A stretch of 64,000 nucleotides of DNA, taken from assembly GCA_038882655.1 (NCBI GenBank), contig JAVZNT010000002.1:64001-128000 (forward strand), written 5' to 3'. Made by a program: the position numbers and the translations under genes. This DNA is from Candidatus Bathyarchaeia archaeon. GTDB lineage: Archaea; Thermoproteota; Bathyarchaeia; Bathyarchaeales; Bathycorpusculaceae. The notes beneath the pieces are model-generated. The model saw only the letters and a list, made by a program, of their open reading frames with translations. It was not told where the DNA came from and did not search any database. Shown piece after piece: positions 29,255 through 52,887 of this stretch (position 1 is the first letter of the stretch; every line of letters begins with the position of its first letter).

Positions 29255-29444
29255 GTGAATGGTTATAAAGTTTTTGAAAACGTTATTGAAAAATTAATTA
29301 AAAATTAAGCCTTCAGCTGTAAATAAGCAACTAAAAACCTATAAAAAATTTTTAGAGCTGAAATTTTTCTCTTAAAAATGCTTATTACCAAAAACAGCCA
29401 CTGAATATAGCTGCAAACAAGCAAAGGGAACAGTGACAGCAAAC

Positions 29445-31274
29445 ATGTGTGGAATATTTGGCTGTATTTTAAAGGAGGGCGCCGCTGCACCGCTAATACA
29501 TCACGCCCTTAGAAGGCTTGAATACCGTGGCTACGACTCCGTAGGTGAAGCAACAATCCACGAAGGAAAACTCTACATTAAAAAGGACAGCGGAAAAATA
29601 GACGACGTTCACAAAATCCATAACCTTGACGACTTGCCCGGTTTTATAGGTATAGGTCACACGAGATGGGCTACACATGGGGCGCCATTAATGATTAACG
29701 CGCACCCCCATGTTGATTGCAGCGGTCAAATAGCTGTAGTCCATAATGGGATTATTGAGAACTTCGCGGAACTGAAGCTTGAACTTGAAGGAAAAGGACA
29801 TACTTTCCAGTCCAGAACGGATACAGAAGTTATAGCCCACCTTATTGAGGAGGCGTTTAAAACAAATCCTTCTTTTGGGCTTGTGGATGCTGTTCTGGCG
29901 GCTTTGCAGAGTCTGGACGGTTCCTATGCGATTGCTGTTATTTCGCCAAAAGAACCAGACAAAATAGTTTGCGCTAGACACGAAAGCCCGCTTGTTGTAG
30001 GAATTGGAGAAAACGCGCTTTATTGCGCCTCGGACATTCCAGCTTTTTTACCATTAACCAATAAGGCGGTAATAATCGAAGACGGAGAGCTGGTAACCCT
30101 ATCTTTTGAAGGTCTTGAAATTAAAAGAATTGCAGACCTAAGCCCTGTCATCCGGGAGCCAAAGCTTATCGACTGGACTCCTGAAATGGCTGTTAAGCAA
30201 GGCTATCCCCACTTCATGTTGAAGGAAATCCATGAGCAACCCGTATGTTTACGAAACACTTTGAGACTGCAGGAGCATTATCTTGATTTGATGGCGACGT
30301 TCTTGGATCGCGCTAAAGAAGTGTTCCTTGTGGCTTGTGGCACATCATATCATGCTTGTTTGGCAGCATCCTATATGTTTTCTAAACTCGCTTTTCTAGC
30401 TACATATCCAGTAATAGCCTCAGAATTCATCGAGCAACACGGAAAATCAGTAAACATCGACAGCACCATCTTGGCTGTAAGTCAATCAGGCGAAACAGCA
30501 GACACGCTTGCCGCAGTAAATGCTGCCCGCCAAAGAGCAGCAACGGTTCTCGGGCTTACAAACGTTATCGGCTCAACACTAACAAGGGTTTCACGAGTCT
30601 ACATCAGCCAGCAGTCCGGTCCCGAAATCGGTGTAGCTGCAACCAAAACCTTCACTTCGCAGCTTTCGGTTCTCGCCCAGCTTGCGCTAAGGCTTGCAAA
30701 GAAGAGGGGAAAAATTTCTCAGGATGAAATGGACTTTATAGATGCGAAGTTAAAGAAGCTTCCAGAAATCGTGGAAACCGTAATCACCACACAAGAGGAG
30801 AAAGTAAAGAGCATAGCGAAAAAGTACAAGGATGCAAAGGTTTTCTTCTTTTTAGGACGGGGTATAAGCACAGCCACAGCATATGAAGGTAGACTTAAAC
30901 TTATGGAAATAGCCTACATCCCGTCAATTGCTTTTCCAGCTGGTGAAAGCAAACACGGACCGATAAGCCTCGTTGAAGAAGGGTTCCCAGCGGTTTTCAT
31001 ATGTCCCAAAGACGATACGCATAAGACCATTATAGGGAACATTATGGAGATGAAAGCCAGAGGAGCCTCAATAATAGCCATCATTGAAGAAGGTGACGAG
31101 GAAGTCAAAAGGCTAGCGGACGATTATGTTGAAGCGCCAAAGGGCATACCGGACGTTTTGTCACCCATACCCTTCGCTGTTCCACTGCAGCTCTTGGCCT
31201 ATTACATGGCTGTTGAAAGGGGACACGACCCTGATCAGCCTAGAAACCTAGCAAAATCTGTGACCGTAAAGTAG
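29445..31274 (+). CDS. glmS: Glutamine-fructose-6-phosphate transaminase (isomerizing)
   Basis: MCGIFG, LEYRGYDS, GHTRWATHG, SQSGETADT, PRNLAKSVTV. Confidence 0.97.
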   Translation: MCGIFGCILKEGAAAPLIHHALRRLEYRGYDSVGEATIHEGKLYIKKDSGKIDDVHKIHNLDDLPGFIGIGHTRWATHGAPLMINAHPHVDCSGQIAVVHNGIIENFAELKLELEGKGHTFQSRTDTEVIAHLIEEAFKTNPSFGLVDAVLAALQSLDGSYAIAVISPKEPDKIVCARHESPLVVGIGENALYCASDIPAFLPLTNKAVIIEDGELVTLSFEGLEIKRIADLSPVIREPKLIDWTPEMAVKQGYPHFMLKEIHEQPVCLRNTLRLQEHYLDLMATFLDRAKEVFLVACGTSYHACLAASYMFSKLAFLATYPVIASEFIEQHGKSVNIDSTILAVSQSGETADTLAAVNAARQRAATVLGLTNVIGSTLTRVSRVYISQQSGPEIGVAATKTFTSQLSVLAQLALRLAKKRGKISQDEMDFIDAKLKKLPEIVETVITTQEEKVKSIAKKYKDAKVFFFLGRGISTATAYEGRLKLMEIAYIPSIAFPAGESKHGPISLVEEGFPAVFICPKDDTHKTIIGNIMEMKARGASIIAIIEEGDEEVKRLADDYVEAPKGIPDVLSPIPFAVPLQLLAYYMAVERGHDPDQPRNLAKSVTVK

Positions 31275-31342
31275 CGCAATACAAATTTGAAATGCAAATC
31301 AGTTAAATGCCTAATCCACTTATCTTGGTATGGTGCAAAAAC

Positions 31343-32048
31343 TTGGAGGTAGACTGGGAACGGCTAATCGAGAATCTGATAAAAGAGGGCGTACTCCGCT
31401 CCCAAAAAGTGATTAAGGCGATGCGCAAAGTGCCTCGAACTAAGTTTCTGCCAGAAAACATGCGATCCTACAGCACTGTAGACACGCCTCTTCCAATTGG
31501 TTTTGGGCAGACGGTTTCAGCGCCACATAGCCTCGGCTTTCAGCCCGGCTAGGCGAAACATGGTTGCAATAATGAATGAAGCCCTTCAATTGGAAGTGGG
31601 CGACAAAGTCCTCGAAGTGGGGGCAGGTTCAGGCTGGCATGCCGCCACAATAGCTGAAATAGTGGCGCCAAGCGAAGCGCCTAGAAGCGAATGGGGACAC
31701 GTCTACACGGTCGAAATAATTGAGGGACTGGCGGAATTCGCAAGAAGAAACATAATGAAAGCAGGATACGGTGACCGAGTCACAATAGTCTGCAGGGACG
31801 GCTCCATGGGCTACCCAGAAAAAGCGCCATACGACAAAATAGTTGTTACAGCAGCAGCCCCAGACATACCAAAACCCCTAGTCGAACAGCTGAAAAACGG
31901 CGGAGTAATGCTTATACCCATTGGAAGCATGCACCTATTCCAAAGCTTGATAAAAGTTATGAAAAGCGCTGATGGAAAAATTAGGCAAGAAAATCTCGGT
32001 GGCGTGGCTTTTGTACCCTTGACTGGGCGCTATGGACATAAACTCTAG
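31343..32048 (+). CDS. pcm: Protein-L-isoaspartate O-methyltransferase, predicted spliced join(31343..31526,31558..32048), 224 aa (alternative start ATG 31307)
   Basis: Exon 1 VPRTKF...[15 protein letters not shown]; exon 2 [37 protein letters not shown]; the two halves are out of frame unless 31 nt are removed. Confidence 0.92.
31527..31557 (+). other. 31-nt bulge-helix-bulge intron in pcm pre-mRNA
   Basis: Central helix CGCC(31521-24)/GGCG(31552-55); 3-nt bulges ACA(31525-27) and AAA(31556-58); inner stem TAGCC/GGCTA plus GGCT/AGCC; canonical cuts give CCA CAC ATG. Confidence 0.88.
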
Positions 32049-32055
32049 CTTGAGT

Positions 32056-33354
32056 TTAGCCAGTTTCAAGTTTTTCTTTATACGCTGTTAAATCTAGGAA
32101 ACCATGTCCGCTTATATTCATGCAGATTACTTTTTCAACCCCAGTTTTTTCGGCTTTTAGTGCTTCATCTATTCCGGCTCGGATGGCGTAGCTGGATTCT
32201 GGAGCAGGTAACCATCCCTCGCTTTGTAAGAAAATCTTTGCAGCTTCAAAAATAGCCTTTTCATCTGTAGGGTAAGCTACTGCCTTAACAAGTCCATAAT
32301 GCCTTAAAAGGCTTATTATGGGAGCAGCTGCGTGATACCGCAAGCCGTCGGCTTTTATCGGCGACATCTCAACCTTATGCCCTAAAGTGTAAACTTTCAA
32401 AAGTGGCGTATATTCAGCCACATCGCAAAAATCATAACGATATTCACCTTTAACAAGGTTAGGTGCAGCCATCGATTGAGCCGCCAGAAACTCGCATTCA
32501 CGTTTTCCTCTAAGAACTTCACCTATGAAGGGCAAGGCTATACCACCAAAGTTTGAACCTCCTCCGAGACAGCCAATTATCAAGTCTGGTTTTTCGTCTA
32601 TAAGGTCAAACTGTTTTATGGTTTCTAACCCTATTATAGATTGGTGCATCAACACGTGGTTTAGAACAGAGCCTAGACAGTAAACCGCGTCTTCATGGGT
32701 CTCGGCATATTCTAATCCCTCTGAAATTGCTATTCCAAGTGAGCCCGGATGCTCCGAATTTTTTGAGAGAACCTCTTTGCCAATTTTTGTCTGTTGACTT
32801 GGCGAAGCGTAAACCTTCGCGCCTAGAAGCTTCATTAATGTTCTTCTGTCAGTCTTCCAGTCATAGACGGATTTAACCCAAAAAACCACGCAATCCAAAC
32901 CTATAAGCCTTGCAGCATAAGAGAGGGCTGTTCCCCACTGTCCAGCACCAGTTTCCGTTGTCAGAGTCGTTTTTCTCTCTTTCATGGCGTAGTAGGCTTG
33001 AGCCACTGCCGTGTTGGTTTTATGAGAGCCCGTTGGAGATAAATCCTCTCGTTTATAATAAAGCCTAACCTTCTTAAGTCCTAAACATTTTTCCAATCTT
33101 ATCGCACGATAGAGGGGCCTAGGTCTTCCCATGTGAAGGTAAAGTTCACGTATTTCTTCTGGAATTGGAACCCAACCCTCACTTGACATCTCTTGCCTTA
33201 AACACTCCTTGACCATGGTCTTAGCCAAAAACTCCATTCGCGACGGACCAGTTTCCGGCTCTTTCGGGGGTGGAAGCGCCTCGGGTAGGTCTGGCAGGAT
33301 ATTATACCATTTTGTTGGAAGCTCGTCTACTGGAAGCGAAATTTGGTTGCGCAC
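32056..33354 (-). CDS. trpB2: Tryptophan synthase beta chain 2 (TrpB2)
   Basis: SPTGSHKTN, TETGAGQWG, GSVLNHV, GGGSNFGG, GLRYH. Confidence 0.92.
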   Translation of the reverse strand: MRNQISLPVDELPTKWYNILPDLPEALPPPKEPETGPSRMEFLAKTMVKECLRQEMSSEGWVPIPEEIRELYLHMGRPRPLYRAIRLEKCLGLKKVRLYYKREDLSPTGSHKTNTAVAQAYYAMKERKTTLTTETGAGQWGTALSYAARLIGLDCVVFWVKSVYDWKTDRRTLMKLLGAKVYASPSQQTKIGKEVLSKNSEHPGSLGIAISEGLEYAETHEDAVYCLGSVLNHVLMHQSIIGLETIKQFDLIDEKPDLIIGCLGGGSNFGGIALPFIGEVLRGKRECEFLAAQSMAAPNLVKGEYRYDFCDVAEYTPLLKVYTLGHKVEMSPIKADGLRYHAAAPIISLLRHYGLVKAVAYPTDEKAIFEAAKIFLQSEGWLPAPESSYAIRAGIDEALKAEKTGVEKVICMNISGHGFLDLTAYKEKLETG

Positions 33355-52808: not shown

Positions 52809-52887
52809 AGCGGGGTGGGGTAGCCAGGATTAACCCGCTGGGCTCATAACCCAGAGATCGGTCGTTCAAATCGACCCCCCGCTACCA
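52809..52887 (+). tRNA. Initiator tRNA-Met (CAT), intronless, CCA encoded
   Basis: A1-U72 acceptor AGCGGGG/CCCCGCT, anticodon stem CTGGG/CCCAG with three G-C pairs, T-loop TTCAAAT. Confidence 0.97.

Follow-up and report, generated by a model that had tools for sequence, protein, structure and literature searches.

A conserved, relaxed bulge-helix-bulge motif points to an intron within the pcm coding sequence of Bathyarchaeia

How can a protein be made from a gene whose single domain has to be read in two different frames? The question is raised by pcm, which encodes protein-L-isoaspartate O-methyltransferase (PCMT), in a Candidatus Bathyarchaeia archaeon (assembly GCA_038882655.1). The gene lies in the 64,000-nucleotide (nt) stretch analysed here as the window, which is contig C2:64001-128000 (JAVZNT010000002.1) of a 1.02-Mb assembly of 27 contigs that is 84% complete. 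Positions below are those of the window, and all parts of pcm are on its forward (+) strand. An upstream open reading frame (ORF) of 81 aa (31307..31552) and a downstream one of 183 aa (31497..32048), the latter including MVAIMNEAL, differ in frame and abut at the junction. Pfam assigns both pieces to PF01135 (PCMT), with 31343-31549 matching profile positions 4-62 (E 2.5e-15) and 31560-32045 matching positions 61-208 (E 9.3e-45), so that jointly they span 4-62 and 61-208 of the 210 positions, each far beyond the 20.3-bit cut-off. A single PCMT domain is interrupted at a single point by 31 nt which shift the frame.

The break falls between SAPH and MVAIM, in the most conserved motif of the PCMT domain. 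Read without excision, the frame ends at a TAG (31550-31552) inside the insert. Excision of 31527-31557 gives A-P-H-M-V in frame and a frame of 224 codons counted from TTG 31343, the start codon being ambiguous between this TTG and an in-frame ATG at 31307. Aligned with all seven uninterrupted orthologues, the joined frame shows 62-78% identity (138-175 of 224-225 columns) and is gapless at the junction. These results bear out what an initial annotation, made from the letters of the window alone, had claimed for the locus: a pcm split across two frames, a TAG that terminates the unspliced frame and a 224-aa product restored by removal of 31 nt. Its transcription of 31517-31563 is identical to the letters of the stretch.

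We propose that the insert is a conserved intron with a relaxed bulge-helix-bulge (BHB) motif, very probably removed by the splicing endonuclease EndA and the ligase RtcB, cleavage and ligation being what we infer from sequence comparison. The proposal is supported because the same codon is interrupted in relatives, the pairing covaries, the boundaries are conserved, intron-less alleles match the predicted junction and the enzymes are encoded in the genome. Exon 1 (31343..31526) holds 61 codons plus the first base, C, of a His codon, and its PLPIG.GQT.SAP motif is conserved in relatives. Four bases of its Ala and Pro codons, CGCC (31521..31524), would pair in the pre-mRNA with the intronic GGCG (31552..31555) to form the 4-bp central helix, H. 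A three-nt bulge, ACA (31525..31527), would separate this helix from the 5-bp inner stem h', TAGCC (31528..31532) with GGCTA (31547..31551), which closes the intron. On the opposite strand, the triplet AAA (31556..31558) would lie between the central helix and a single G-C pair (G31520-C31559), a remnant of the outer helix h. An apical hairpin inside the intron, GGCT-TTC-AGCC (31535..31545), is present in the minimum free energy (MFE) fold and varies in sequence and length among relatives.

In each bulge, the archaeal splicing endonuclease cleaves 3′ of the second nucleotide. By this rule the enzyme would cut at 31526/31527 and 31557/31558 and release the 31-nt intron (31527..31557), after which RtcB would ligate the pcm exons. 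The His codon would then be composed of C from exon 1 and AC from exon 2 (31558..32048), which continues with MVAIM... to the TAG at 32046-32048, and the mature mRNA would encode the 224-aa methyltransferase counted from TTG 31343. The excised intron would presumably circularise and splicing would be constitutive.

Natural variation maps the predicted cuts. We analysed 123 distinct junction sequences, all from either Bathyarchaeia or a single further class of the phylum, and the same codon is interrupted in every one of them. The homologous inserts range from 26 to 48 nt, with 31 nt in 41 junctions, 32 nt in 34, 30 nt in 21 and 29 nt in 11. Only 24 of the 123 are divisible by three and all 24 contain an in-frame stop; therefore the insert would not be read as protein. 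CGCC/GGCG forms the central helix in 119 junctions, CACC/GGTG does so in two and CGCC/GGTG in two, which makes the intronic strand GGCG in 119 and GGTG in four. The 5′ bulge reads ACA (101), TCT (9), ACT (8), TCA (3) or ACG (2), its second base being an invariant C and its third base variable. In the 3′ triplet (AAA 84, AGA 30, ATA 6, ACA 3) A is invariant at both outer positions and variation is confined to the middle base. A cut after the second base of each triplet joins C to AC and yields His in 123/123 junctions. Cutting one base later gives His in 104, Leu in 17 and Arg in two, and no excision at all gives His in 91, Leu in 17, Gln in 13 and Arg in two, while all 14 intron-less alleles have a His codon at the junction. 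Conservation maps both putative splice sites, and the second-bulge-nucleotide rule, applied in the initial annotation to a single sequence, is the sole register predicted to restore His in all 123, frame included.

The pairing itself was assessed on a 123-row alignment with 120 distinct rows, and the figures that follow are descriptive, not probabilities. Across the central helix and inner stem the share of paired cells is 97.1%, as opposed to 85.0% for column shuffles, and 0 of 500 shuffles come as high. Two-sided changes occur in 193 cells against 59.7 in the shuffles, the covariation score is 0.424 against 0.178 (again 0/500), and sliding the partners by 1-3 columns leaves pairing at only 17.5-44.7%. 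An alignment of 86 rows gives the same picture. All cells of the CGCC/GGCG helix are paired (100% in the 120 distinct rows); its second pair is G-C in 116, A-U in two and G-U in two, so that one pair has a compensated change. Six pairs of the inner stem are 94.7% paired and each shows two-sided changes, the values counted from the bulge being 100, 99.2, 100, 95.9, 91.1 and 81.3% (n=123). The central helix and inner stem drawn in the initial annotation are thereby supported, and the covariation of CGCC/GGCG it had suggested looking for is seen at one pair; in relatives the insert comes with a conserved core pairing.

Third codon positions carry a related signal. With the intron, the Ala codon is GCG in 102 and GCA in two of 104 loci, and both GCA loci have the compensating GGTG. 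Without it, the codon is GCA in seven, GCT in four, GCG in two and GCC in one (n=14). The third base of the Pro codon, which is also the first bulge base, is A in 101 and T in three of the 104 intron-bearing loci, and A in four, C in four, T in five and G in one of the 14 intron-less ones. These synonymous sites in the helix and bulge are constrained solely where the putative intron is present.

Such constraint bears directly on a very improbable alternative, namely that pcm is a split gene. Here the N-terminal fragment would end at the stop within the insert, the C-terminal fragment would start at ATG 31560 by means of a GGCGA/GGTGA ribosome-binding site, and the two halves would assemble, with the hairpin coupling their translation. 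Exon 2 starts with ATG in all junctions read, GGYGA stands 4 nt upstream of that ATG in 123/123, and both ORFs are open in all relatives, as a split gene would have it. The chief argument against it is the invariant His of SAPH, which without splicing would become Leu, Gln or Arg in 32 of the 123 junctions, whereas the BHB rule gives His in all of them. Two halves made separately would also leave unexplained the geometry of a 4-bp helix with a 3-nt bulge, the compensatory changes and the third-position constraint on Ala and Pro that is confined to intron-bearing alleles. Moreover, the tails of the N-fragment are conserved in neither sequence, frame nor length, and the break would fall in the most conserved motif of the domain.

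We give still less credence to translational bypass or programmed frameshifting, in which ribosomes would hop over the hairpin, as they do in phage T4 gene 60. The break is indeed followed by a stable hairpin that includes a stop codon, and the gap is short, but matched take-off and landing codons in the right frame are absent: CAT at 31526-28 and CAT at 31559-61 continue in the wrong frame, and the bulge variants TCT, ACT and ACG abolish any codon match. Gap length, moreover, varies freely between 26 and 48 nt.

The weakest alternative, a dead gene in which a frameshifting insertion sits in a decaying pcm, or else an assembly error, is hardly credible, for although the literal reading of pcm is frameshifted and a clearly degraded second copy (L159) exists in one relative (G396), the insert is found in independent assemblies of more than 100 species-level genomes and recurs among the DNA contigs from other runs. 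All 118 loci (118/118) keep exon 2 open over 120 codons or more, exon 1 matches PF01135 without stops, and the insert carries compensatory changes, not decay. The assembly artefact that the initial annotation had allowed for is likewise contradicted by these comparative data.

How widely, then, is the putative BHB intron distributed? Among 40 relatives, 25 have pcm in two pieces that differ in frame and meet at one and the same profile position, and six have an in-frame insert with stops, making 31 insert-bearing genomes; pcm is uninterrupted in seven, and two are without a clear pcm. A scan of species-representative genomes added 80 loci. The GQT.S.P motif was present in 118 of 119 loci, and of these 118 the insert occurs in 104 and is absent from 14. 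Intron-less alleles, which the initial annotation had proposed as a check, correspond to the predicted spliced junction, gaplessly in all seven that were aligned. A strict sequence pattern is present in 91 of 401 sampled genomes of class Bathyarchaeia, with the caveat that pattern searches overlook variants such as CACC/GGTG and yield some false matches; a reversed-pattern control gave four matches in the 401 genomes. Of 46 places retrieved from the pattern search, 39 lie in pcm and seven are chance matches elsewhere. In another order of the class, two loci (L129, G134:C1:361583-362020, and L130, G328) have the shortest introns seen, about 25-26 nt, and exon 2 of L129 starts with MAAIM, not MVAIM, for which reason this locus was passed over when junctions were parsed.

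Outside Bathyarchaeia the strict pattern occurs in two genomes of one genus belonging to another class of the phylum, and both matches were confirmed as pcm. These loci (L171, G501:C143:4514-4957; L172, G487:C78:2363-2806) hold the same pcm intron, its bulge being ACT and its stem of the TAGCC.../...GGCTA type, and this occurrence points to either great age of the intron or a transfer of pcm between classes. Other out-of-class pattern matches (G587, G504, G495 and G702) were judged by eye to be chance.

A covariance model, R1, matches 72 of the 121 genomes in a sample of the order, 71 of them exactly once. Because its R1 matches are single-copy, the putative element belongs with pcm rather than being a repeat scattered through genomes. 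In the genome of the window, R1 scores 50 bits at pcm and 18 bits at the next match, and the R1 search found no second copy of the intron there. That 18-bit match (L178, C7:23372-23417, minus strand; GCGCC-ACA...GGCGATAC) is a chance look-alike which lies in frame inside an intact 298-aa ORF. Two R1 matches are seen in G396, one of 35.5 bits (C58:6589-6631) and one of 26.7 bits on C14 (L159, C14:14435-14878); the latter keeps the intron, but stops or frameshifts interrupt the pcm exons on either side, and it looks like a decaying second copy.

Absence of the intron is itself patchy. Genus g30 (G076, G129 and G189; 1.6-2.9 Mb, 96-100% complete) has no pcm match at E ≤ 1e-12 in any of the three genomes, and in its sister genus g33 (G122 and G186) pcm is uninterrupted in both. 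Gene loss and loss of the putative intron both occur inside one family. On a FastTree phylogeny of exon-2 proteins, which is pcm-based, has 160 columns and is weakly resolved, the 14 intron-less rows are interspersed among intron-bearing rows and need eight changes, at least two of them forced by well-supported branches. Such a pattern would fit repeated precise loss from an intron-bearing ancestor.

Is pcm the only such gene in this genome? The initial annotation had called for a genome-wide BHB scan of frameshifted coding sequences. A loose scan for coding-sequence introns gave 2172 candidates. An enumerating scan gave 1421 BHB-like hairpins, 11 short ones of which were translated; excision was needed by pcm only, the other ten lying in intact frames or between genes. 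A final filter left 175 candidates that by eye, pcm excepted, looked like neighbouring genes or noise. No further case came to light in this genome, a weak negative given how crude the scans were (Watson-Crick pairs in H, exons of at least 60 codons, no homology test). The genome's own cbf5 is not split and forms one open frame. At the intron site Rfam returned chance-level matches only (E ≥ 3.4). Flanking pcm are glmS (29433-31274) and, on the opposite strand, a pyridoxal phosphate-dependent (PLP) enzyme of TrpB type (32056-33354).

Both putative processing enzymes are encoded in the genome. RtcB is complete (PF01139, 597 bits across the full profile; match at C4:20151-21461), and EndA is represented by two paralogues with PF01974 matches of 102 and 92 bits. 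The two EndA genes are located on different contigs, at C4:39988-40545 and C3:68252-68812. The 185-aa paralogue is closest to crenarchaeal catalytic subunits (2cv8, E 5e-45; 3p1z_B, 3ajv_B and 2zyz_B), resembles the catalytic chains of S. tokodaii and A. pernix and keeps ...EHAPY.... In the 186-aa paralogue a Thr is aligned to a His of the M. jannaschii enzyme (1a79) that we take to be its catalytic His, the residue numbering being assumed likewise. From these features we infer that the host EndA would combine the catalytic with the non-catalytic paralogue in a heterotetramer of (alpha-beta)2 make-up. This type is linked to relaxed motifs and to cbf5 splicing in the literature (PMC10485636, PMC2738675, PMC12397907).

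ARAGORN finds only 28 tRNA genes in the genome, of which eight contain introns (7-39 nt). Non-canonical introns invisible to ARAGORN may be present in many tRNA genes, which would fit an endonuclease of broad specificity. A tRNA-Met (CAT) at 52809-52887 (+) is the sole tRNA in the window and its sole Rfam family above threshold.

Several points weigh against the BHB intron reading and are best taken together, beginning with the form of the motif. In the strict hBHBh′ form the flanking helices h (exon-exon) and h′ (intron) each have at least two base pairs. At pcm, h′ reaches this length and h does not: past one G-C pair, invariant in 120/120 distinct rows, exon-exon pairing is not conserved. 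The weaker outer exon-exon helix of the initial annotation accordingly shrinks to this single pair. Of its two 3-nt bulges, the 5′ one is well formed between H and h′ and is unpaired in the MFE fold of 82 of 86 sequences, whereas the 3′ triplet, though correct in position and length, has only the one G-C pair to close it on the outer side and is unpaired in 36 of the 86. An extra pairing of exon bases, ACNRU with AUGGU, appears in some folds, and these bases are fixed by coding. The predicted motif is classed as a relaxed BHB (bulge-helix-loop-like), not the strict form, because its outer helix is essentially one invariant G-C pair.

Folding energies are not decisive either. The window's own sequence has an MFE of -23.5 kcal/mol (z = -1.52), a value equalled or bettered by 13 of 200 shuffles. 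In its MFE structure the inner stem is kept, ACA is bulged on the 5′ side and three of the four pairs in the central helix form, and the 3′ AAA is paired with an upstream UUU rather than bulged; in 50 of the 86 sequences, the window's own among them, the 3′ triplet is paired in the MFE. Imposing the BHB core raises the energy above the MFE by 0.65 kcal/mol in the median, and in 34/86 the full core is the MFE. Because the window's own MFE is without the full BHB and z is only -1.52, the case is not built on energy; the significance of the motif stems from comparison, and single-sequence folding energy is unconvincing. The comparison has weak places too: the central helix varies in just 4 of 120 rows, its covariation coming from few events, and related genomes are non-independent samples. 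In addition, the GGYGA directly upstream of the exon-2 ATG resembles a Shine-Dalgarno core, as set by the archaeal anti-Shine-Dalgarno sequence, and part of its conservation could have another cause.

Direct RNA evidence across the junction, a check named in the initial annotation, is weak. The runs containing the stretch are hot-spring metagenomes, and none is on record as plain RNA. Four of them (X1, X2, X5 and X6) were mapped to 30800-32600 at 90% likeness, with incomplete cover in X1, X5 and X6. One X5 contig joins 31526 to 31558, skipping exactly the predicted 31 nt, whose ends read AT..AA, at a depth of 9.75 and with a shorter side of 28 nt. The joint was not seen in X1, in X2 (which comes from the X5 study and reaches a depth of about 300 there) or in X6, and unspliced contigs also occur in X5 and X6. 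The X5 library is labelled METATRANSCRIPTOMIC but flagged 'RNA? (probably DNA)', and intron-less relatives, about 91% identical around the junction, would pass the 90% threshold, so that the contig may be a relative's DNA. The exact predicted joint is there, but whether RNA or DNA, and from which organism, is ambiguous, and we regard it as a weak hint of splicing. Separately, contig depth peaks over the intron 3′ end and the start of exon 2 (31471-31653) in X2, X5 and X6, reaching about 3040 in X2 against tens elsewhere; apparently many community members share this conserved stretch.

In the literature searched, whose coverage excludes supplementary lists of predicted BHB sites (e.g., PMC7714728), no pcm intron is described, which agrees with the initial annotation's statement that cbf5 was documented and no pcm case known. 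By that literature pcm would rank second, after cbf5, among archaeal coding sequences known to carry an intron of this kind, alongside one 5′ untranslated region (UTR) in Haloferax, and would add a different, uncultivated lineage. A 2023 review counts 'at least two archaeal genes' spliced by the endonuclease route, with more probably awaiting discovery. The more than 120 natural variants of the pcm junction place both putative splice sites with single-nucleotide precision, indicate the bases that the enzyme would tolerate and include clear examples of precise loss. The gene is likely to be mis-annotated as a fragment or pseudogene across the class, because gene callers split or truncate it in many Bathyarchaeia genomes, and other interrupted genes may be similarly hidden.

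Among known systems, an intron in the cbf5 pre-mRNA of Crenarchaeota was reportedly described by Watanabe and colleagues in 2002. According to PMC2738675, this intron is small, of BHB type and located in a coding sequence, has a relaxed motif, occurs in hosts with a hetero-oligomeric endonuclease and shows patchy gain and loss. The pcm intron shares with it the relaxed motif, a host with two EndA paralogues and intron-less alleles scattered among intron-bearing ones. It differs in gene and in lineage (Bathyarchaeia and one other class), and splicing is experimental for cbf5 whereas for pcm it is deduced from comparing sequences. Beyond cbf5, Yokobori et al. 2009 give no confirmed gene, with putative introns predicted in a rudivirus and in Sulfolobus (PMC2738675). 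A BHB intron in the 5′ UTR of HVO_1309 of Haloferax volcanii, whose enzyme is of the alpha2 type (PMC10485636), is reported by Schwarz et al. 2020 (PMC7714728). Like HVO_1309, pcm would provide the tRNA splicing endonuclease with a substrate that is an mRNA, neither tRNA nor rRNA; unlike that intron, known from an untranslated leader in a single species, the pcm intron stands in the reading frame and is clade-wide.

Non-canonical archaeal tRNA introns, reportedly treated by Marck and Grosjean in 2003, offer a second comparison. Archaeal tRNA introns are given a length of 11-175 nt (PMC2738675), and relaxed BHB or bulge-helix-loop motifs in tRNA are cut by (alpha-beta)2 or epsilon2 enzymes (PMC12397907). 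The pcm intron resembles them in size, in its 4-bp helix and in having one bulge that is well formed while the other site sits in a loop that is poorly closed. Its host RNA is an mRNA, unlike a tRNA, and the exon strand of the helix consists of Ala and Pro codons, so coding and structure constrain the same bases.

Further afield, HAC1 and XBP1, a system also named in PMC13149111, each hold a short, frame-changing mRNA intron that IRE1 removes, the exons being joined by a tRNA-type ligase (RtcB) without the spliceosome. The pcm case would be alike in having a short frame-changing mRNA intron, a protein endonuclease and a tRNA-type ligase, all as proposed above. By analogy one might imagine, as a long shot, that the pcm intron is a splicing switch and thus a counterpart of HAC1/XBP1, with PCMT production gated by EndA/RtcB activity or by temperature-dependent folding (the BHB core against a GUUUC/GAAAC pairing present in the MFE), and that it has been kept class-wide since before the orders diverged; the excised circle, about 30 nt long, might even serve some function itself. 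Set against the likeness, the endonuclease differs, the RNA motif of HAC1 and XBP1 is a pair of twin stem-loops, and their splicing is a regulated stress switch.

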